DNA of 62,390 nt, filler included, from a bacterium (GCA_027004335.1; 9 parts of 9 records of this genome joined end to end with filler, not necessarily neighbours in it), one strand, 5' to 3'; positions 9,895 to 60,583 are shown, numbered from the whole stretch's first letter. A program made the numbers and translations. The notes: generated by a model not told the origin, from the letters alone.

Positions 9895-10032
9895 AACACT
9901 TTTGTTACAATTATGGGGCTTGAAGGAGCGGAAAAATACAGAGATTCTCTGTTTGCTGAGGTCATGGATGTGATTCCTCCTCGAAGCATTCTTGCTGAAA
10001 TGGTAAAATTTATTGTAAGGAGAGATTATTAG
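9895..10032 (+). CDS. ispA: Polyprenyl (farnesyl/geranyl) diphosphate synthase, C-terminal fragment
   Basis: Hand translation NTFVTIMGLEGAEKY...LAEMVKFIVRRDY* matches IspA C-termini. It lies directly upstream of dxs, the conserved ispA-dxs order. Confidence 0.8.
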   Translation, partial: NTFVTIMGLEGAEKYRDSLFAEVMDVIPPRSILAEMVKFIVRRDY

Positions 10033-10041
10033 GAGGCTCTC

Positions 10042-11916
10042 ATGTTGTTAGAGAAAATCAGTTCCCCGGAGGACCTGAGGAAACTAAATATTGATGAACT
10101 GAACACCCTTGCAGATGAAATAAGAAGATACATTATTCAGGTGGTATCCAGAACGGGCGGCCACCTTGCTCCCAGTCTTGGAGCTGTGGAACTTACACTG
10201 GCATTGCATTATGTGTTTGATACTCCGAAAGATGTTATTGTATGGGATGTTGGACATCAGGCGTACGCACATAAGATTATTACAGGGAGAAAAAATGATT
10301 TTAAAAAACTCAGACAATTTGGTGGAATAAGTGGTTTTCTTTCAAGGGACGAAAGTGAATATGATGTTTTCGGGGCAGGTCACAGTAGTACTTCAATTTC
10401 AGCAGCGTTAGGAATAAGGGAAGCCCTTGATAAAAAGGGTGAAAAAGATACTAAGGTTATTGCAGTGATTGGTGATGGTGCACTAACTGCTGGTGTTGCT
10501 TTTGAAGCTTTAAATAATGCTGGTGCTAAAGAAGATAAAGATATTATTGTCATTTTAAATGATAATGGAATGAGTATTTCTCCCAATGTTGGTGCAATTG
10601 CATCTTTTTTAAGCAGGAAAATGACAGGGAAGTTAATGACTTCCCTGAGAAATGATGTAAAGAATTTTTTGAAAAAATTGGGTGTTCCCGGAGCTATTGA
10701 TCTTGTACGGAGAATAGAAGATTCAATGAAAAGCATAATCTCCCCCAGTTCTCTTTTTGAATCGTTTGGTTTTACATATCTTGGACCCATTAATGGTCAT
10801 AAAATTGAAGAGCTAATTGAGGTTTTCAGGAATGCCAAAATACAGAAGAGACCCCTTCTTATCCATGTGTTAACAAAGAAAGGAAAAGGTTATGCTCCTG
10901 CAGAGATGAATCCAGAGAAATTTCACGGTGTCGGGCCATTTGATGTGAGCAGCGGAGAATTTTCAAAAAGCAAGAAACCTCCTTCCTATACATCAATATT
11001 TTCAAACACTTTGATAAAACTTGCCAAAAGTGATGAAGATATTGTGGCAATTACTGCTGCTATGCCTTCAGGAACAGGTCTGAATAAGTTTAAAGAGGTT
11101 TTCCCGGATAGGTTTTATGATGTTGGTATAGCTGAACAGCACGCCGTCCTCTTAGCTGCTGGTATGGCAATAAAAGGACTTAAACCTGTCGTGGCTATAT
11201 ATTCTACCTTCTTGCAGAGAGCTTTTGATCAGTTGATTCATGATATAGCTCTTCAGAATTTGTCTGTTATTTTTGCTCTGGACAGGGCTGGAATAGTGGG
11301 AGAGGATGGTCCCACCCACCATGGTATTTTTGATCTCAGTTATCTCAGACTCATTCCAGGTTTTACCGTTGCTGTTCCTAAGGATGAAAACGAACTTAAG
11401 GATCTGCTTTACTCTGCTTTTCAGTGGGGGAGTGGCCCCAAAGCTATCAGATATCCCAGAGGGGCGGGGGTGGGCGTTGAAGTGACGGAAGCCTTTAATT
11501 TAATTCCTGAGGGTCAGTGGGAGATTTTAAAGGAGGGGCACAGTGGAGTTATTTTTGCAACGGGTTATGGTGTATATCCTTCGCTAAGGGTTGCCGATAA
11601 ACTTGCAGCAGAAGGAATTAATCTTGCAGTTGTTAATGCGAGATTTATTAAGCCTCTTGATGATAAGATATTGAAGAATTACCTCCACTTACCTGTTGTA
11701 TTTGTTGTGGAAGAGAACAATATTGTAGGTGGGTTGGGTGGAGCGATTTCTGAGTATTACTGTGACGATAAGGGCCCTATTGTTTTCAGAATAGGCATAA
11801 AGGACATGTTCCCTCCTGTGGGTTCCCAGAGCGATGTGAGGAAATTTGTGGGGCTCGATGAGGAGGGGATCTATCTTCAGATAAAAAATCTCTATTCAAG
11901 GACTTCTCTTTCGTGA
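10042..11916 (+). CDS. dxs: 1-deoxy-D-xylulose-5-phosphate synthase
   Basis: GGHLAPSLGAVEL, WDVGHQAYAHK, GDGALTAG...LNDN (TPP-binding), DVGIAEQHA, GEDGPTHHG and IRYPRG. AGGAGG RBS. Confidence 0.98.
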   Translation: MLLEKISSPEDLRKLNIDELNTLADEIRRYIIQVVSRTGGHLAPSLGAVELTLALHYVFDTPKDVIVWDVGHQAYAHKIITGRKNDFKKLRQFGGISGFLSRDESEYDVFGAGHSSTSISAALGIREALDKKGEKDTKVIAVIGDGALTAGVAFEALNNAGAKEDKDIIVILNDNGMSISPNVGAIASFLSRKMTGKLMTSLRNDVKNFLKKLGVPGAIDLVRRIEDSMKSIISPSSLFESFGFTYLGPINGHKIEELIEVFRNAKIQKRPLLIHVLTKKGKGYAPAEMNPEKFHGVGPFDVSSGEFSKSKKPPSYTSIFSNTLIKLAKSDEDIVAITAAMPSGTGLNKFKEVFPDRFYDVGIAEQHAVLLAAGMAIKGLKPVVAIYSTFLQRAFDQLIHDIALQNLSVIFALDRAGIVGEDGPTHHGIFDLSYLRLIPGFTVAVPKDENELKDLLYSAFQWGSGPKAIRYPRGAGVGVEVTEAFNLIPEGQWEILKEGHSGVIFATGYGVYPSLRVADKLAAEGINLAVVNARFIKPLDDKILKNYLHLPVVFVVEENNIVGGLGGAISEYYCDDKGPIVFRIGIKDMFPPVGSQSDVRKFVGLDEEGIYLQIKNLYSRTSLS

Positions 11917-52777: not shown

Positions 52778-52924
52778 CTCTTCACCTACCCTGATAATTT
52801 CCTTACCGGGATCAAAAACATAACCAAAGATCTTTCCTGAAGACCAGTCATAGTCAAGAGAACCAACTTCATCTAATTTGCGTAAGATTTCTTCCCTGCT
52901 CAATCCTTTTTCAGGTAGTTCCAT
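52778..52924 (-). CDS. N-terminal fragment of a group II PLP decarboxylase / sphingosine-1-phosphate-lyase-like protein
   Basis: LPEKGLSREEILRKL...D.DWSSGKIFGYVF resembles the LP..G...D..W..G...G.VY start of this family. AAGGAG RBS. Only 49 aa are visible. Confidence 0.65.
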
Positions 52925-53127: not shown

Positions 53128-53213
53128 AAATTTAATAGTAATTGTTGTTTTAAAAGATTATAAAACCTCTTAGATGGGGATGAGCTTTTTGTAATGGAAC
53201 AGGTTCCAGAGCT

Positions 53214-53759
53214 ATGATAGAGATCAGGTTTCACGGAAGAGGCGGTCAAGGTGCTGTTACATCTGCTGAGATACTTGCTCAGGCAGCAATAGAGGAAGGT
53301 GAATATGCCACAGCTTTTCCCTCCTTTGGGTCCGAGCGAAGAGGCGCGCCTGTTTTAGCTTTTACCCGCATTGATAAAGAACAGATCAAATTGAGAACAG
53401 GTATCTATCAGCCAGATATTGTGGTTGTTCTTGACCCTACATTGATAGAAAGTCATAATGTTGCAGAAGGTCTTAAGAAAAATGGCCTTGTTGTGATCAA
53501 TACAAAGAAACCTCCTGAATTCTGGAAGGAAGAGATTGGGGTCAACAGAGTATGTACGGTAAAAGCTACAGTTATTGCTATGCAGGAACTTGGAGTCCCC
53601 ATAACAAATATTATTATGCTGGGTGCGCTTCTCAAAGCTGAACCCTTGGTGAGGCCTGAGATGATTGAGAAGAGGATAAGAGAGAGATTTCCCCATATAG
53701 CTGAGAAAGAGGTTAGAGCCTTTGACAGAGCAATTAATGAAAGCAGGGTAATACAATGA
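53214..53759 (+). CDS. porC: Pyruvate/2-oxoacid:ferredoxin oxidoreductase gamma subunit
   Basis: [35 protein letters not shown] and NIIMLGA. Confidence 0.95.
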
Positions 53760-54049
53760 AACTATCGGAAAAGCCCAAATGGCAGGAACTTCCCCTCGCT
53801 GCAAGTATAGTTGAACCTGCAACAAGTCTTGAGTACAAAACAGGGGATTGGAAGACCTTAAAGCCAGTTGTTGACACCACCAAGTGTATAAGATGTGCGA
53901 CCTGCTATATTTTCTGTCCCGAAGCAGCTTATGAGGAAAATGAAGAGGGATACTTTCTTCCCAATTATGATTACTGTAAGGGTTGTGGAATTTGTGCAGT
54001 TGAATGTCCTGCCATGTGTATTCAAATGGTGGAGGAAGAGGCTGAGTAA
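53756..54049 (+). CDS. porD: Pyruvate/2-oxoacid:ferredoxin oxidoreductase delta subunit (2x[4Fe-4S])
   Basis: KTGDW..KP, CIRCATCYIFCP and YDYCKGCGICAVECP. Confidence 0.95.
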   Translation: MKLSEKPKWQELPLAASIVEPATSLEYKTGDWKTLKPVVDTTKCIRCATCYIFCPEAAYEENEEGYFLPNYDYCKGCGICAVECPAMCIQMVEEEAE

Positions 54050-55227
54050 TGGCACATAGAACAGGAATTGAGGTAAGTCTTGCGATAGCAGAAGCTGCCA
54101 GGCAGGCAGAAGTAGAGGTGATTTCTGCTTATCCAATTACCCCCCAGACTCATATAGTTGAAAGGCTTGCTAAGATGGTAGCTGATGGTGACCTTGAAGC
54201 TGATTTTATTACAGTTGAATCAGAACATACCGCCATGAGTGCAGCAGTTGGTGCATCTTTAGCGGGAGCAAGGGCATTTACTGCTACATCGTCTCAAGGT
54301 CTGGCTCTAATGGACGAAATAGTCTACCTTGCTTCCAGTCTGAGAACTCCAGTGGTTATGGCACTTGCTAACAGAAGTCTTTCCGGACCTATTTCCATAT
54401 GGAACGATCATTCAGATATTATGAATGTAAGAGATGCAGGCTGGATTTCTATTTTTGCCAATAATGGGCAGGAGGCGTATGATTTAACTCTCATGGCATA
54501 TAAAATAGCTGAAGATCATAGGGTGTTGCTCCCCGTCATGATTTCATTTGATGGATTTATTCTAACTCATATGATTGAGCCAGTTTGTGTTTTTGATGAT
54601 GAGGAAATTAAAGGTTATCTCCCACCTTTTAATCCTCCTTATAAGGCTGACCCTGAACATCCAGTTACATTTGGCCCGGTAGGGGTTCCAGATATTTACA
54701 CTGAAGCAAAGAAACAGCAAGACTTTGCCATAAGGAGTTCTATCAGCGTAATAAAAGAAGTGTTTGCAGATTTTGAGAAAGAGTTTGGAAGGAAATACAA
54801 ACCTGTAGAATCCTATATGGCTGAAGATGCAGATGTGATATTACTTTCTCAGGGATCAGTTTATGAAACAACTGAGATAGCGGTTGATAGGTTGAGAAAA
54901 GAAGGTAAAAAGGTTGGGTCTGCTGAGGTTAGACTCTGGCGTCCCTTCCCATTTGAGGACCTGAGAAAAGCAGTTGCCAATGCGAAAGTCGTTGTGGTGC
55001 TTGATAGAGCTATATCTTTTGGTGGACAGCCTGGCCCGCTTTTAGGAGAAATTAGAAGTGCTTTGTATCCATTGGAGAAAAAACCTGGAGTGATCGGGGT
55101 GACAGCCGGGCTTGGAGGAAGGGATATAATGATTCAGGATTATGAAAAGATGTTTGAATATGGGTACAATTACCTTAAAACAGGTAAGGAACCTGAAGCA
55201 GTAACAATTGTGGGGTTAAGAGAATGA
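54049..55227 (+). CDS. porA: Pyruvate/2-oxoacid:ferredoxin oxidoreductase alpha subunit
   Basis: AYPITPQT, VESEH, TATSSQGL, NR, DHSD, DGFILTH, RPFP and GLGGRD. Confidence 0.95.
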   Translation: MAHRTGIEVSLAIAEAARQAEVEVISAYPITPQTHIVERLAKMVADGDLEADFITVESEHTAMSAAVGASLAGARAFTATSSQGLALMDEIVYLASSLRTPVVMALANRSLSGPISIWNDHSDIMNVRDAGWISIFANNGQEAYDLTLMAYKIAEDHRVLLPVMISFDGFILTHMIEPVCVFDDEEIKGYLPPFNPPYKADPEHPVTFGPVGVPDIYTEAKKQQDFAIRSSISVIKEVFADFEKEFGRKYKPVESYMAEDADVILLSQGSVYETTEIAVDRLRKEGKKVGSAEVRLWRPFPFEDLRKAVANAKVVVVLDRAISFGGQPGPLLGEIRSALYPLEKKPGVIGVTAGLGGRDIMIQDYEKMFEYGYNYLKTGKEPEAVTIVGLRE

Positions 55228-56189
55228 TAAAGACTACAAGACCCAGAGAAGGCTTCCTTAATATCTTTGCCTATCAAACTGTGACAAGAGAAGAATACTT
55301 TGTTAGAGGTCACAGAGCGTGTCAGGGTTGTGGTGCCGCTCTGGGATTAAGATTAATTATGAAGGAAGCAGGTCCAAATACTATCGTGGTTAATGCTACA
55401 GGGTGCATGGAAATAATAAGTTCTCCCTACCCTTACACATCATGGGCTGTACCATGGATCCATGTTGCTTTTGAAAATGCTGCCGCAGTTGCCAGTGGTG
55501 TTGAATCTGCGATTAAGATTTTGAGAAAAAAGGGGAAAATACCGGAAGATAAAGAAATAAATATCATTGTGTTTGGTGGTGATGGTGGTACAGCGGATAT
55601 AGGAATTCAGGCATTATCAGGTGCATTGATAAGAGGTCATAAATTTCTCTATGTTTGTTACGATAATGAAGCATATATGAATACAGGGGTTCAGGGTTCT
55701 TCTGCAACTCCCTATGGTGCATCAACTACCACCACTCCAGCAGGGAAGATGAGCATTGGGCAGGGATACTGGAAAAAGAATTTAGTGGAAATAACTGCTG
55801 CTCACAGGATTCCCTATGTGGCAACTGCATGTCCGAGCTATCCTCTTGATCTTATGAAAAAAGTAAGAAAAGCCCTTGATGCTGATGGACCTTCTTTTAT
55901 TCACATGTTTTCAGTTTGTCCGACGGGGTGGGGAACTCCTCCTGAGCTTACCATAAGAATAGGAAGGCTTGCAGCGGAGACAGGAATGTTCCCACTTTAT
56001 GAAATAGATCACGGAAAATATAAGTTGACACTGGACCTACCCAATGGGCTTAGACCCATTGAGGATTTTCTTAAAGTTCAGAAGCGCTTCAGGCACTTAA
56101 CGAAGGAAGATATTGAAGTAATCCGTAATCGTGTTCAGGAGGAGTATGATAGATTGAAAAAAATGGAAAGATTTACTCAGGAAGAATGA
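55224..56189 (+). CDS. porB: Pyruvate/2-oxoacid:ferredoxin oxidoreductase beta subunit
   Basis: GHRACQGCG, ATGC, FENAAA, GGDG...YDNEAYMNTG (TPP-binding) and CPTGW. Confidence 0.95.
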   Translation: MIKTTRPREGFLNIFAYQTVTREEYFVRGHRACQGCGAALGLRLIMKEAGPNTIVVNATGCMEIISSPYPYTSWAVPWIHVAFENAAAVASGVESAIKILRKKGKIPEDKEINIIVFGGDGGTADIGIQALSGALIRGHKFLYVCYDNEAYMNTGVQGSSATPYGASTTTTPAGKMSIGQGYWKKNLVEITAAHRIPYVATACPSYPLDLMKKVRKALDADGPSFIHMFSVCPTGWGTPPELTIRIGRLAAETGMFPLYEIDHGKYKLTLDLPNGLRPIEDFLKVQKRFRHLTKEDIEVIRNRVQEEYDRLKKMERFTQEE

Positions 56190-56680
56190 AAATGCCTCAG
56201 CTTCCAGTTGAACCTGCAAAAGCAGTTTCTGAAATTTTAAGTCGGTATCACGGTGATCCTGCGAGGATGATAGAAATTCTCCAGGACCTTCAGGAAATCT
56301 ATAGGTATTTACCGAAAGAGGTCATTGAAGAAGTTTCTCATCAGACAGAGATCCCGATAAACAGGATTTATCATATTGCAACATTTTATAAAGCCTTTCA
56401 TCTTGAACCGAGAGGTGAAACTATAATAACAGTATGCACAGGAACTGCCTGTCATGTGAGAGGTTCTTTCAGAACCCTGGATCTGCTTTCCGAACGTCTT
56501 GGCGTTAAACCTAATGAGACAAGTGGTGATTTGAAATATACTCTTGAAACAGTAGGTTGTGTAGGCGCATGTGCGCTTGGCCCTATAGTGATCATAAATG
56601 GGAAATACTATGGACATATGACTCCAGATAGGATGGACAGGGTACTTAAAAGGATGGGAATAATTGAGAAGTATTCGTAA
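56186..56680 (+). CDS. NuoE/HydC/BfuC-like [2Fe-2S] subunit
   Basis: LQDLQ..YRYLP, IATFY, VCTGTACHVRG and GCVGACALGP (four Cys). Confidence 0.93.
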   Translation: MKMPQLPVEPAKAVSEILSRYHGDPARMIEILQDLQEIYRYLPKEVIEEVSHQTEIPINRIYHIATFYKAFHLEPRGETIITVCTGTACHVRGSFRTLDLLSERLGVKPNETSGDLKYTLETVGCVGACALGPIVIINGKYYGHMTPDRMDRVLKRMGIIEKYS

Positions 56681-58532
56681 AAAAGAAGATCTCCTGAATT
56701 TATATGAAAATTTGCGGAAGGAGAGAGAGAAGCAAGGAAAGTTTATCTCTGTTTGTGTAGATACAGGATGTCTGGCCACTGGTTCTGGAGCGGTTTTTTC
56801 TGCTCTCAAAGAGGAAATTGCAAAAGCGGGACTGAACCCTGAGGGGGAGGGAGTCAAAAAAATACTCAGGGGAACAGGCTCATTAGGTTTTGATAGTGAG
56901 AATCCAGTTGTTGTAATTTACCCTGAAAAAATATTTTATAGAAAAGTTAGGCCTGGAGACGCGAAATATATTGTACATAAGACTCTTTTAAACGGTGAGA
57001 TTATTGAGAGGCTTCTATATAAGGATCCTGAAACAAATGAACCAATTCCTTATCTGGATGATATCCCGTTTTATAAGCATCAGAAGCGTCTTCTGCTGGC
57101 AAATCATGGAATAATTGATCCTTTAAGCATTGAAGAATATATTTCAATAGGGGGATACCAGGCGCTTCTCAAAGCTCTTACGGAAATGGAACCACCCCAA
57201 ATAGTGGAAGAGGTAAAAAAGTCAAAGTTGAGAGGGAGAGGAGGCGCAGGTTTTCCAACCGGAATCAAGTGGGAAGATGCGGCTAAGAGGGATTCAGACA
57301 TAAAGTATGTTATATGTAACGCTGATGAAGGTGATCCTGGTGCTTATATGGATAGGTCTTTGTTAGAGGGGGATCCGCATAGCGTAGTTGAAGGGATGAT
57401 TATCGGTGCCTATGCAGTAGGTGCAAGCCACGGATATATTTATGTAAGAAGAGAATATCCAAAAGCTCTGGAAAGCGCTACAAAGGCAATAGAAGATGCA
57501 CGGGAAGCAGGATTGCTGGGGGATAATATTCTGGGAACGGGTTTTTCTTTTGATATAGAAATAGCAAGGGGAGGAGGAGCTTTTGTTGCTGGAGAATCAA
57601 CGGCTCTGATGGCTTCAATTGAGGGGAAGCCTGCTGAACCTCACACCAAATATATCCATGCTACGCAGGCTGGACTTTACAGTAAGCCTACAGTTTTAAA
57701 TAATGTGGAGACATGGGCAAATGTTCCAATTATTATAAATAAAGGAGCTGACTGGTATGGAAATATAGGGACCGAGAAAAGCAAAGGAACCAAGATATTT
57801 TCCCTTGTTGGTGCTGTAAAGAACTCCGGGCTTGTAGAAGTTCCCATAGGAACAACTCTGAGGGAGGTAATCTTCGATATCGGTGGTGGTATCGCCAGCG
57901 AGAAAAAGTTTAAGGCGGTACAAACAGGTGGACCATCGGGGGGGGTTCTCCCTGAATCTCTTCTGGACATGCCTATTGATTTTGATACATTAACGAAGGC
58001 TGGTTCAATGATGGGCTCAGGTGGTATGATTATCATGGATGAGCATACATGTATGGTGGATGTAGCTCGCTATTATATTGATTTTCTTTCCAAAGAATCC
58101 TGTGGAAAATGTACCCCGTGCAGGGAAGGGCTCAGGCAGATGTTAGATATTCTCACCAGGATTACTCAGGGGGAGGCAACAATGGATGATCTTGACCTCC
58201 TTGAGGAACTTTCATATGTTGTTAAAGATGCGAGTTTATGTGGACTGGGTCAGACTGCTCCCAATCCAGTTCTTTCTACTCTTAAATATTTTAGGGATGA
58301 ATATGTAGCTCATGTAAGAGATAAACATTGCCCTGCCGGTGTCTGTGCTGCATTGATAGAATATGAGATCATTCCAGAAAAATGCACTGGTTGTCTTGCA
58401 TGTAAGGTAAGATGTCCAGTGGGTGCAATTGAAGGGGAAAAAGGAGAAGTTCACAAAATAGATCCAGATAAGTGCATAAGGTGTGGAATCTGCATGGAAG
58501 TGTGTACATTTGATGCAGTGAGGATAAAGTGA
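56664..58532 (+). CDS. NuoF/HydB/BfuB-like FMN and NAD(P)H-binding subunit, long form with C-terminal 2x[4Fe-4S]
   Basis: LRGRGGAGFPTG.KW, CNADEGDPGAYMDR, NNVET, GGPSG, ESCGKCTPCREG, SLCGLG, H...CPAGVC, CTGCLACKVRCP and CIRCGICMEVC. Confidence 0.95.
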   Translation: MRSIRKKEDLLNLYENLRKEREKQGKFISVCVDTGCLATGSGAVFSALKEEIAKAGLNPEGEGVKKILRGTGSLGFDSENPVVVIYPEKIFYRKVRPGDAKYIVHKTLLNGEIIERLLYKDPETNEPIPYLDDIPFYKHQKRLLLANHGIIDPLSIEEYISIGGYQALLKALTEMEPPQIVEEVKKSKLRGRGGAGFPTGIKWEDAAKRDSDIKYVICNADEGDPGAYMDRSLLEGDPHSVVEGMIIGAYAVGASHGYIYVRREYPKALESATKAIEDAREAGLLGDNILGTGFSFDIEIARGGGAFVAGESTALMASIEGKPAEPHTKYIHATQAGLYSKPTVLNNVETWANVPIIINKGADWYGNIGTEKSKGTKIFSLVGAVKNSGLVEVPIGTTLREVIFDIGGGIASEKKFKAVQTGGPSGGVLPESLLDMPIDFDTLTKAGSMMGSGGMIIMDEHTCMVDVARYYIDFLSKESCGKCTPCREGLRQMLDILTRITQGEATMDDLDLLEELSYVVKDASLCGLGQTAPNPVLSTLKYFRDEYVAHVRDKHCPAGVCAALIEYEIIPEKCTGCLACKVRCPVGAIEGEKGEVHKIDPDKCIRCGICMEVCTFDAVRIK

Positions 58533-59263
58533 TGGTTAAGATAACCATTGATGGGAAAAAAATTTCTGCGAAAGAAGGCGAGACTGTCTTAAAAGCTGCA
58601 CAAAGAGCAGGAATTTTTATTCCTACTCTATGTAACAATGATGCAGTTAAACCCTATAGCGCATGCAGGATGTGTCTGGTTGAAGTTGCTAAAAATGGCA
58701 GAACCAAGCTCGTAACTTCCTGTGATTATCCCGTGGAGGAAGGAATTGAGGTAAATACAAATACGGAGCGGATCCAGAGAGACAGGAAGGTGATTCTGGA
58801 ACTTTTAATTGCAAGAACAGGCGAAACACCTGAATTAAAAAAGCTTGCTGAAAAAGTAGGGGTTAAAGAGGTAAGATTTAAAGTAAGAAACTTTGATGAC
58901 TGCATACTTTGCGGACTTTGTGTTAGAGTATGTGACGAAGTGGTTGGGGCTCATGCTATTGGTTTCAGGGGAAGGGGCATGGAGCGAGAAGTAGTGCCAC
59001 CTTTTGATGTAGAAAATGAGCAATGTCTTGCATGTGGTGCATGTGCGGAAATATGTCCAGTAAATATCATAGATATTTTTGAACACGACGGGACAAGAGA
59101 ACTTCCAAAATGGCATAAAAAGTCCAGGCTTGTGGCATGCAGGGTTTGTGGGAAATACTTTGCTACTGAAGAAGAAATTGAAATGATCAGGGCAAAGACT
59201 GGCTTACCCGACGAGATACTATATGTCTGCCCTGATTGTAGGGAACATAATTTTACTATTTAG
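58529..59263 (+). CDS. Short NuoG/HydA-N-terminus-like Fe-S subunit without a catalytic domain
   Basis: IPTLC...ACRMCLVE...TSC ([2Fe-2S]), CILCGLCVRVC and CLACGACAEICP (2x[4Fe-4S]), and C-terminal CRVC...CPDC. Only 244 aa. Confidence 0.9.
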   Translation: MMVKITIDGKKISAKEGETVLKAAQRAGIFIPTLCNNDAVKPYSACRMCLVEVAKNGRTKLVTSCDYPVEEGIEVNTNTERIQRDRKVILELLIARTGETPELKKLAEKVGVKEVRFKVRNFDDCILCGLCVRVCDEVVGAHAIGFRGRGMEREVVPPFDVENEQCLACGACAEICPVNIIDIFEHDGTRELPKWHKKSRLVACRVCGKYFATEEEIEMIRAKTGLPDEILYVCPDCREHNFTI

Positions 59264-59363: not shown

Positions 59364-59391
59364 TTGACAGCATGGAGTAATTTTGTAAAAT
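59364..59391 (+). promoter_or_regulatory. Sigma70 promoter of the tRNA pair
   Basis: TTGACA-16 nt-TAAAAT, ending 11 nt before tRNA-Gly. Confidence 0.75.
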
Positions 59392-59402
59392 TATTAACGC
59401 AG

Positions 59403-59478
<76 letters not shown>

Positions 59479-59487
59479 TTTTTTTCT

Positions 59488-59561
59488 GGCGGCGTACCCA
59501 AGAGGCCTAAGGGGGCGGTCTGCAAAACCGCTATTCACCGGTTCGACTCCGGTCGCCGCCT
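59488..59561 (+). tRNA. tRNA-Cys (GCA), CCA not encoded
   Basis: Acceptor stem GGCGGCG/CGCCGCC, anticodon arm GCGGT-CTGCAAA-ACCGC, T loop GTTCGAC and U discriminator, followed by CTA. Confidence 0.97.
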
Positions 59562-60583
59562 CTATTAAATAAGTGCTTTTTAAGCCATTTTTCAATTACT
59601 GGGAGAGTTTCCTCTGTTGCGTCAACTCCCACTACAAGGTCTATGTGACCATAGTCATGTTTGAATCCCTCGGGTTTTCCCATGACCACTAAAAACTTAT
59701 CTCTGGAAGAGATATATTTGTAACTCAGCCTGATCCCCTCTGCCGGCGCCATTTTATCAACATCCCCGGCTATTAAAAGTACTGGATATTTAAGATCCTT
59801 AAGGGATGTAAGATAATTGATGTTATATTCATCTATTAGGGGTCCTTTTTCAATAGCATCTTTAAGCTGATCTACCATTTTAATAGGGGTGGTTGGGCTT
59901 ACCGCTCTTGTTATCATTATGGATACATCAGAGGGGGATATGTCATTTACATTTCCAAGTAACTTCAACAGTGAGATTTTTTTGAGAAAGTAAGGAGAGA
60001 AAGGTTTTACTATGTAATTCCCCGGAAACGACCATGCATAGGGAGTAACAAATTTAAATTTATCCAGTAGGTTAATCAGGGGGATATAAATTTTCCTCTG
60101 CCATGCAGAGAATGTTACAGGAGCTGCAATAGCTATTATCCCAATAAGGTGAGTGTCAAATACATGGGAACCATAAGCTAAATCGGTGATTCCACCCAGG
60201 CTGTGACCCATAATAAAATATTTTTTGACACCTCTTTTTTTCACGCTTTTGATAAGGGCTTTTAAATCATATCTCCATAACCTCCCTATTGTTATAATCC
60301 TGGGAGAGTTACAGTGTGATGCACCATGCCCCCGAAAGTCTATAGCGAAACCTTTGAACCCCTTTTTTGAGAGGATTCTCGCGAAGGATTTAGAGGGTAC
60401 AGCGTCAAAGTTGTTATGATTTGCACCAAGTCCATGGAGATATATTATGGCGGGCAGAGTGCTGCTTCCAGGATAGGTGAATACTGGTAATTTGCATCCA
60501 TCTGTGGTCCTTATCCAGTAGGATGGGATATCATGGCTGGAGCAGGAAAAGATGAAAGTAATGAGTATCAGTAGAAAGAGCAA
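59531..60583 (-). CDS. Alpha/beta-fold hydrolase lipoprotein (lipase/esterase-like)
   Basis: Lipobox IFS-C; LHGLG, DFRGHGAS, GHSLGG (nucleophile elbow), AGDVDKMAP (Asp) and YGHIDL (His). Confidence 0.9.
   Translation of the reverse strand: MLFLLILITFIFSCSSHDIPSYWIRTTDGCKLPVFTYPGSSTLPAIIYLHGLGANHNNFDAVPSKSFARILSKKGFKGFAIDFRGHGASHCNSPRIITIGRLWRYDLKALIKSVKKRGVKKYFIMGHSLGGITDLAYGSHVFDTHLIGIIAIAAPVTFSAWQRKIYIPLINLLDKFKFVTPYAWSFPGNYIVKPFSPYFLKKISLLKLLGNVNDISPSDVSIMITRAVSPTTPIKMVDQLKDAIEKGPLIDEYNINYLTSLKDLKYPVLLIAGDVDKMAPAEGIRLSYKYISSRDKFLVVMGKPEGFKHDYGHIDLVVGVDATEETLPVIEKWLKKHLFNRGGDRSRTGE

Follow-up and report, generated by a model that had tools for sequence, protein, structure and literature searches.

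The window analyzed here, a stretch of 62,390 nucleotides in which parts of nine records of a bacterial genome (GCA_027004335.1) are joined end to end with filler, contains at 53214..59263 a run of seven genes, porC-porD-porA-porB-bfuC-bfuB-bfuA. This locus raises the question whether a four-subunit 2-oxoacid:ferredoxin oxidoreductase (POR) and a BfuABC module without a catalytic centre form a single enzyme, and whether this enzyme couples NAD(P)H and ferredoxin to the conversion of a 2-oxoacid. The analysis gives an even chance to one enzyme of the Por-Bfu kind, in which a pyruvate-type POR would be docked on BfuA by the N-terminal arm of PorB and by PorD and would combine NAD(P)H and reduced ferredoxin as electron donors in the carboxylation of acetyl-CoA. 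A first-pass annotation made from the nucleotide sequence proposed POR as the partner that supplies the third reaction to the Bfu module, and this idea is supported by conserved synteny, by a docking model with controls and by the co-variation of PorB with BfuA.

Gene order and conservation of the por-bfu operon

All seven open reading frames (ORFs) are located on the plus strand of a single contig of 9,613 bases (C141), and no run of N occurs at 53214..59263 in the concatenated window. Consecutive genes overlap by 4 (ATGA), 1 (TAATG), 4 (ATGA), 4 (ATGA), 17 and 4 (GTGA) bases, in agreement with the coordinates and overlaps given in the first-pass annotation, and from these overlaps the genes are presumably co-transcribed. 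Profile searches assigned the products to PorC, PorD, PorA and PorB of the pyruvate/2-ketoisovalerate group, to a NuoE-like protein, to a long NuoF-like protein that ends in a 2[4Fe-4S] domain and to a NuoG/HoxU-like protein of 244 residues. The porC gene (53214..53759) specifies a gamma subunit of 181 residues (TIGR02175, 217.9 bits at a cut-off of 81.1; PF01558), porD (53756..54049) a delta subunit of 97 residues (TIGR02179, 99.8 bits at a cut-off of 60.05) with two [4Fe-4S] motifs formed by Cys 44/47/50/54 and 74/77/80/84, porA (54049..55227) an alpha subunit of 392 residues and porB (55224..56189) a beta subunit of 321 residues that binds thiamine pyrophosphate (TPP). These genes are followed by bfuC (56186..56680; NuoE/HydC-like, 164 residues), bfuB (56664..58532; long NuoF/HydB-like, 622 residues, TTG start) and bfuA (58529..59263; Type 2, GTG start), the product of which matched WorA (PDB chain 9MQX_A) over its full length with an E value of 7.9e-53.

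The synteny proved to be conserved. Among the best 80 BfuB loci found in genome_contigs, which include representatives of Dehalococcoidia, Smithella, Syntrophaceae and Desulfobacteraceae, porB directly precedes bfuC in 45, another context is present in 21, and 14 end too soon. Of the best 80 PorB-centred metagenome loci, 27 are linked to the bfu genes and 12 could not be judged for want of length; two others have a variant module and the remaining 39 lack the linkage, resulting in a linked share of 27 of the 68 assessable loci. Linked PorB proteins cluster in a quick tree that omits three partial rows and in which 45 genome rows are linked by selection (12 changes compared with 40.1 after shuffling), and the nearest PorB of the window protein, L113, is also linked.

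The arrangement is already predicted in print and is not a new kind of system: Por-Bfu (Por-BfuA-G), with a Type 2 BfuABC and 12 sequences, is given as uncharacterised by Schut et al. 2022 (PMC9304861). The bioinformatic prediction mentioned in the first-pass annotation thus exists, and the novelty of its core idea falls with it. In line with the statement made there that no biochemically characterised example is known, a literature search turned up no purified or assayed Por-Bfu, and the word Bfu is absent from the main text of a 2026 review on pyruvate:ferredoxin oxidoreductase (PFOR; PMC13768988). The window operon resembles the published system in the combination of four POR subunits with BfuABC in one cluster, in a BfuA without A3 and A5, in the GEST motif of the published row and in the tRNA genes at its boundary (PMC9304861). 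The BfuB segment of the loci L266 and L249 shows the same residues as the Por-Bfu row printed in Schut Suppl. Figs 9-10; over the part retrieved (porD to bfuA), the gene order of L266/L249 is that of the window operon, and the proteins share 45-61% identity with those of the window. The published Por-BfuB belongs to clade 45 of the Schut tree. In a FastTree phylogeny of BfuB, the placement called for by the first-pass annotation, the window protein and L266 fall into one clade of 136 rows (SH-like support 97) that carries GES[T/S] in 128 of its 136 rows compared with 1 of 41 rows outside; the window BfuB is located outside the 32-row subclade of L266. Differences concern the host, since the hosts listed in the available parts of PMC9304861 are Chloroflexi and Proteobacteria and the window host belongs to a phylum with two genomes in the collection, and the B5 site, at which L266 keeps four cysteines and the window BfuB has lost two.

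Predicted contact between POR and BfuA

A four-chain model of PorC, PorD, PorB and BfuA reached ipSAE values of 0.83, 0.80 and 0.83, and the best of three controls, including one with PorB replaced, reached 0.00. Of 157 solved complexes, 116 attain the mark applied to this score, as do 2 of 215 mismatched pairs; for a job with four chains and custom alignments these numbers are only a rough guide. The runs agreed in at least 83% of the contacts, with a partner pLDDT of at least 85. According to the model, PorB residues 10-23 contact BfuA residues 134-139 and 169-175. The contacts of lowest error belong to residues 12-19 of PorB (55257..55280), an arm predicted to act as docking element towards BfuA 138-139, 169-175, 212 and 216. 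PorD residues 43-46, 81-83 and 85-88 lie against the zinc-finger helix 219-226 of BfuA, and for PorC no BfuA contact is listed. Most of the modelled contacts involve the C-terminal half of BfuA (58901..59263) with its 2[4Fe-4S] region and zinc finger, which is the predicted POR-docking part. By the usual two-cluster ferredoxin pattern, the contact regions would flank the clusters bound by BfuA Cys135/166/169/172 and PorD Cys44/47/50/84, which we take, by analogy with complex I and PFOR structures, to be A4 and the distal cluster, respectively. The match lists of BfuA and PorA have no PDB entry in common, so that a remembered complex of this kind is unlikely. The model is evidence for binding without proving it; that POR and BfuABC form a complex through the predicted PorB/PorD-BfuA contact is considered very probable. 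As to the iron-sulphur wire that the first-pass annotation wished to see modelled, the interface was thus predicted, and the part on the gap between the clusters yielded no distances.

Comparison of the PorB sequences revealed a motif that accompanies this contact, consisting of a hydrophobic and then an aromatic residue at 15 and 14 residues before a GHRAC-type motif, a rule that was set after a first comparison had been seen. The arm motif is present in 71 of 71 PorB proteins with a BfuA-type neighbour and in 2 of 39 without one; three linked rows lacked the region. A hold-out set was scored after the rule had been fixed; it was drawn from the order of G042, in which 53 of 61 genomes have this PorB, with regions chosen for contig room. 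One of its 20 regions, L252, had been cut on the wrong side and was excluded. The 19 scored loci comprise nine with bfuCBA, five with a B1/GltD-like flavoprotein and bfuA, three with an ORF of 120-139 residues and two without partner, and the arm motif was found in 17 of the 17 loci with a partner and in one of the two without. The available parts of the Por-Bfu paper (PMC9304861) give no interface, so the PorB arm is an inference of the present analysis. New in this respect is a specific and mutable predicted interface, formed by PorB 12-19 against the BfuA surface around Cys169-172 and the zinc-finger helix.

Natural variants of the linkage

The linked loci also constitute a natural variant series, comprising loss of B5 ligands, loss of B3/B4, replacement of BfuBC and adaptor-only forms. 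In seven loci (L136:6962-9803, L141:6988-9650, L255, L263:965-3665, L264, L265 and L270), porB is followed by a gene for a fusion of the NuoF B1 helical bundle with a GltD-like FAD/NAD(P) domain (Pfam tested for three of the seven) and by bfuA, and BfuBC is absent; these loci are candidates for a non-bifurcating pyruvate:NAD(P)+ oxidoreductase. Stand-alone ORFs of 120-139 residues directly after porB (L261, L268:936-1298 and L269:947-1357) match only BfuA residues from about 101/125 to 239, that is the C-terminal 2[4Fe-4S]/zinc-finger half. BfuA, or only its docking half, is retained beside porB where BfuBC has been exchanged or is missing, so that the portion docked in the model is the one that stays with POR. 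Accordingly, the C-terminal half of BfuA can tentatively be regarded, at somewhat less than even chances, as a plug-in adaptor on the PorB arm that would wire one POR clade to BfuBC, to a B1/GltD-like flavoprotein or to a bare adaptor, with the window copy as a confurcating pyruvate synthase devoid of the B5 cluster and perhaps of any metal at this site. Interface and variants together make testable whether Por-Bfu is one enzyme and which parts bifurcation needs.

Among 65 complete POR-linked BfuB proteins, 13 lack B3/B4, comprise 557-565 residues and stop after the B2 site; none of the nine hold-out copies is of this type. The truncated genes occur in L034, L036 (bfuB 9977-11659), L037, L039, L041, L043, L045, L047, L048, L051, L064, L065 and L131, 12 of the 13 proteins form one Chloroflexota clade, and inspection of the 13 loci revealed no separate small ferredoxin gene in place of B3/B4. 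In addition, L165:1796-3262 encodes a POR-linked BfuB that starts at the domain binding flavin mononucleotide (FMN), lacks the whole B5 domain and keeps B3/B4.

Longer PorB relatives were inspected for a natural PorB-BfuA fusion, and none was present among the 120 listed of 1,909 such proteins; those listed mostly bear an intein or a GltD insertion. P0038-P0042 and many of P0071-P0157 are PorB relatives of 640-880 residues with intein and homing-endonuclease Pfam domains. P0043-P0070 and P0073 carry a GltD-like flavoprotein domain inserted near the C-terminus of PorB and are 57-65% identical to the window PorB over the matched part; the arm motif is present in none of the 28 scored insertion forms.

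The Bfu module and the degenerate B5 site

The Pfam search detected PF01512, PF10531, PF10589 and PF00037 in BfuB, corresponding to the FMN, SLBB, NADH_4Fe-4S and C-terminal 4Fe-4S domains of the BfuABC family definition, and PF01257, for the thioredoxin-like [2Fe-2S] domain, in BfuC (E 1.1e-48). BfuB retains the B1 ligands C480/483/486/526, all eight cysteines of B3/B4 at 574-614 and a B2 site of three cysteines and one histidine (C463, H550, C556 and C561, with Thr501 at the variable fifth position), and BfuC contains the ligands of the [2Fe-2S] cluster C1 (Cys 84, 89, 125 and 129). The motifs GDPGA.M, K.F.L and GGPSG claimed in the first-pass annotation were all located, as GDPGAYM (223-229), KIFSL (377) and GGPSG (422). 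Besides His550, the Bfu signature residues Ala227, Met229 and Phe307 near NADH and FMN are kept; for the phenylalanine, Schut 2022 prints F182, and the motif residue of Suppl. Fig. 10 is Phe282 when counted on the 7T2R alignment. The AlphaFold model of BfuB (pLDDT 91.3) matched best the bifurcating HydB and WorB (8A6T_B and 9MQX_B, TM 0.91-0.92). BfuA contains the ligands of A1, A2 and A4, neither a His-ligated A3 nor A5, and no catalytic domain. It ends seven residues past the last cysteine of a C-terminal four-Cys zinc-finger motif (C204/207/234/237), without a long C-terminal helix, and likewise Por-BfuA has been described with a zinc finger but without the C-terminal helix (2025 paper, PMC12318220).

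With its 244 residues, BfuA has no long NuoG part, no H-cluster and no molybdopterin domain, which sets the module apart from NuoEFG of complex I, HydABC hydrogenase and NAD-linked formate dehydrogenase. The other six genes encode POR or BfuCB proteins, so the first-pass claim of an operon devoid of hydrogenase, formate dehydrogenase and membrane Nuo subunits stands.

The composition of the module had been read correctly in the first-pass annotation; the replacement of two cysteines at B5 had been missed. Cys31 and Cys36 are kept in BfuB, and the second cysteine pair is replaced by Ser73 (TCA) and Asp77 (GAT; site at 56880..56894). Four B5 cysteines are present in the other 68 of 69 POR-linked BfuB proteins that have a B5 domain. 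A sequencing error is unlikely because both codons differ by at least two bases from cysteine codons, neighbouring residues are changed as well and one of these cysteines is also missing from the sister sequence P0002. Besides the protein itself, no relative of the BfuB N-terminus above 50% identity was found. The BfuABC family definition of 2022 states the B5 [2Fe-2S] cluster as conserved in all members (PMC9304861); with two ligands lost, the window BfuB falls outside this wording and the operon represents a variant of Por-Bfu. It stays within the revised core, since later structures show that B5 need not be a cluster. The NfnABC enzymes of Caldicellulosiruptor saccharolyticus and Thermococcus sibiricus bifurcate with Zn instead of a [2Fe-2S] cluster at B5, leaving B1-FMN-C1 as minimal site (PMC11829005, PMC12018979). 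These enzymes differ from the window module, which is of Type 2, in being Type 1 with NADPH as third substrate, and in the metal site, which in C. saccharolyticus consists of three cysteines and one glutamate compared with only two cysteines here.

Bifurcation or direct wiring to NAD(P)

In the proposed mechanism, POR (PorABCD) would dock on BfuA through the PorB arm and PorD, next to BfuA Cys135/169/172, and electrons would follow the path FMN-B1-A1-A2-A4-PorD clusters-PorB cluster-TPP. Ferredoxin would enter at B3/B4 and C1, and the electrons of NAD(P)H and reduced ferredoxin would confurcate for the carboxylation of acetyl-CoA to pyruvate. Coupling through a B1-FMN-C1 core without the B5 [2Fe-2S] cluster is moderately favoured, and the window copy would then be a case provided by nature for testing B1-FMN-C1 as the minimal mechanism.

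Several observations weigh against coupling. In HydABC of T. kivui, deletion of the B5 domain sharply cut bifurcation (PMC12018979), and B3/B4 are needed for it. Bifurcation is also not a conserved trait of the linked loci, since B3/B4 is missing from 13 of 65 BfuB proteins and another module takes the place of BfuBC in seven loci. A search of the 80%-complete genome for small ferredoxins (PF13370) gave no match above the cut-off. Bifurcation is accordingly less secure than implied in the first-pass annotation: with two B5 ligands lost here and 13 truncated BfuB proteins among the relatives, it does not follow from the order of the genes.

The explanation that the complex is built as modelled and does not bifurcate is unlikely though it deserves serious attention. 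The enzyme would then act as a pyruvate:NAD(P)+ oxidoreductase or be only loosely coupled, and electrons would take the route from BfuA through B1 to FMN with the ferredoxin branch staying idle. Such a function agrees with the lost B5 ligands, with the relatives that have dispensed with B3/B4, the whole B5 domain (L165) or BfuBC, and with the downhill oxidative direction, and the GltD-like insertion in close relatives of PorB suggests that direct wiring of POR to NAD(P) recurs in this PorB group. It does not account for the retention of all eight B3/B4 cysteines, the B2 site and three Bfu signature residues or for a thioredoxin-like domain that still folds in the AlphaFold model despite the B5 change, and Zn at B5 is compatible with bifurcation in NfnABC. 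Moreover, WorABCSL of Acetomicrobium mobile (PDB 9MQX), for which bifurcation has been shown, depends on both acceptors even though a low-potential donor feeds its A4 (PMC12318220). This enzyme contains the closest solved BfuA, matching in full length, zinc finger and absence of A3, and the second-closest BfuB, with B5 intact in WorB and degenerate in the window protein. A specificity for NADP cannot be read from the GEST motif, as the near-identical GESS occurs in the NAD-using WorB; GEST itself is found in HydB of T. kivui, whose enzyme reduced NADP+ and not NAD+.

One complex or two enzymes

If POR and BfuABC were instead two separate co-expressed enzymes, with an ordinary POR beside a BfuABC module devoted to another partner, they would be linked only by free ferredoxin, as used by the PFOR of Methanosarcina acetivorans and the PFOR family (PMC13768988). 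Evidence of this kind comes from one blue-native complexome analysis of D. mccartyi, in which PorA, PorB and PorG peak together in slices 32-33 in extraction mode 3, cbdbA683-685 are not listed for this mode in the available parts of the paper and cbdbA684 occurs only in the disruptive mode 2; the sensitivity was low, and PorD was missed as well (PMC6005880). The same direction is taken by short BfuABC modules of the same BfuB clade in other contexts (26 rows without porB) and by the genome itself, in which a separate aldehyde:ferredoxin oxidoreductase (AOR) and a molybdopterin enzyme are present. By gene order, cbdbA684 is presumably BfuB. About 20% of the genome is missing and may encode another Bfu partner. 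Further points that count against a single complex concern the model, which was built with custom alignments of 46-50 rows, with PorA left out and without cluster distances, and the arm motif, which occurs without partner in the hold-out PorB of L260. Its association with BfuA is only suggestive, since it rests on four independent pairs, of which 3.5 on average go the same way and none the opposite way (p 0.125).

Two separate enzymes nevertheless appear improbable. The docking model attains the mark with its controls staying at 0.00, the PorB arm goes together with a BfuA-type neighbour, and the docking half of BfuA persists alone beside porB. Searches of the genome, which is 80% complete, detected neither a further NuoEFG-like set nor a hydrogenase, NuoD or RnfD, nor any match to PF00346, PF00374 or PF02906. 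An alternative partner of the Wor kind finds little support, since no WorS-like ORF of at least 100 residues is present at the AOR locus, and the C-terminal helix by which WorA recruits WorS (PMC12318220) is absent in the window BfuA.

Substrate and direction

The substrate of the complex is probably pyruvate, with good confidence. Pyruvate profiles outrank those of Vor and Pad for all four POR subunits: PorA yielded 496.5 bits with PorA_Arch compared with 334.4 for VorA and 290.4 for PadG, and PorB yielded 420.8 bits with the pyruvate synthase profile PRK11865, above the cut-off of 405, compared with 359.4 for the Vor-type PRK11864, below its cut-off of 405. The motifs YPITP and NR of PorA match the solved PFOR of M. 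acetivorans, and YPITP is present in 59 of 59 scored linked PorA proteins. This four-subunit enzyme (PDB 9BT4; closest chain 9BT4_B, E 1.7e-101) also shares the porC-D-A-B order, the TPP and cluster ligands and the substrate motifs with the window operon.

A Por-Bfu build acting on another oxoacid, for example 2-ketoisovalerate or phenylglyoxylate in amino-acid breakdown, is about as improbable as two separate enzymes. It draws on the pyruvate synthase equivalog cut-offs, which speak against pyruvate in that PorA (496.5/550), PorC (223.3/225) and PorD (113.5/120) miss them and only PorB passes, on the strong matches of Vor and Pad profiles and on the literature search, which found no assayed member of this clade. 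It is opposed by the ranking of the profiles, the PFOR-like motifs of PorA and the presence of three other oxoacid oxidoreductase loci in the genome. These are a Kor-like alpha-beta-gamma set on G000:C98 (L199), an alpha-beta fusion cut by the contig end on C202 (L200) and an Ior-alpha-like fragment on C75 (L212). A POR-type core wired to an NAD-reducing flavoprotein is also found in PadEFGHI, the NAD-linked phenylglyoxylate oxidoreductase; Pad profiles remained far below their cut-offs for the window proteins, and the flavoprotein module here is BfuABC.

With pyruvate as substrate, net synthesis is moderately favoured as the main direction. The genome contains 17 acyl-CoA dehydrogenase matches (13 at E <= 5.5e-25), a protein like electron transfer flavoprotein:quinone oxidoreductase and two proteins of the phosphoenolpyruvate synthase/pyruvate phosphate dikinase family, and the host is a probable fatty-acid oxidiser. 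Synthesis is favoured because beta-oxidation, with acetyl-CoA and NADH as products, would leave the organism in need of a route to pyruvate. Against this direction stand the energetics: according to Schut Table 1, the potentials oppose synthesis by about 110 mV (21 kJ/mol) with NADH and ferredoxin and by 60 mV (12 kJ/mol) with NADPH, so that very low pyruvate and withdrawal of the product would be needed. Should synthesis by Por-Bfu hold, the enzyme would fix CO2 into pyruvate with NAD(P)H giving half of the electrons, which would be of relevance for energy-limited syntrophs, Dehalococcoidia and engineered carbon fixation.

A role swap, in which PorD would occupy the ferredoxin site of BfuBC as low-potential exit, mid-potential electrons would enter BfuA and NAD+ reduction would drive pyruvate synthesis, is energetically attractive and agrees with the homology of PorD to the B3/B4 domain (PorD profiles match BfuB 570-620) and the 13 linked loci without B3/B4, but it is disfavoured and highly improbable, as the model puts POR on BfuA and POR keeps BfuA in loci without any BfuBC; a PorD-BfuB contact lies outside the model.

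Flanking features and further observations

The boundaries named in the first-pass annotation, a divergent gene upstream and a tRNA promoter downstream, were both found. The divergent ORF (52778..52924, minus strand), which is cut by the contig end after 48 codons and gave no Pfam or NCBIfam match, lies outside the system. Downstream, on the plus strand at 59364..59562, the promoter-like site that scored best in the region (TTGACA-16-TAAAAT, 59364-59391, 11 of 12 positions) is followed by tRNA-Gly(GCC) and tRNA-Cys(GCA). No terminator-like site was found 3' of bfuA, and the promoter scan yielded 23 sites compared with 14.9 +/- 3.7 expected, none of them convincing for porC. A foreign origin of the operon was not evident from its composition, with a GC content of 0.42 compared with a contig mean of 0.386, and with its contig at rank 81 of 119 by tetranucleotides.

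The host genome comprises 1.5 Mb and is 80% complete. In the second genome of the phylum (97% complete), the matches to these queries were confined to a short NuoF and a distant POR. A weak hint at the habitat, possibly not independent of the source, comes from the hydrothermal vent metagenome of run X1: five of its records, each of 151 bases, agree with the window at 53142-53292, 54482-54632, 54816-54966, 57558-57708 and 57766-57916 with differences at 0-1 bases.

Variations of gene content were observed in further loci. PorC and PorD are apparently fused in one ORF in the linked operons L038, L054, L062, L070, L079 and L118, and in L009:426-4074 a distant gene of the PorC family (32% identity) lies ahead of a bfuCBA set, which may represent an Ior- or Kor-linked version. 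In L122:2978-7653, L143:4830-9570 and L145:3589-8277, related por operons are directly followed by HdrA-like and MvhD/CCG-domain genes, which are candidates for another bifurcating-type partner of the same POR group (Pfam tested for L143). Finally, a glpX-like gene is located 3' of the operon in several Dehalococcoidales loci (PF03320 in two of two tested), and glpX, encoding a class II fructose-1,6-bisphosphatase, follows B3/B4-less loci at L036:12606-13646 and L047:10537-11562 and similarly in L039, L041, L048, L051 and L064.

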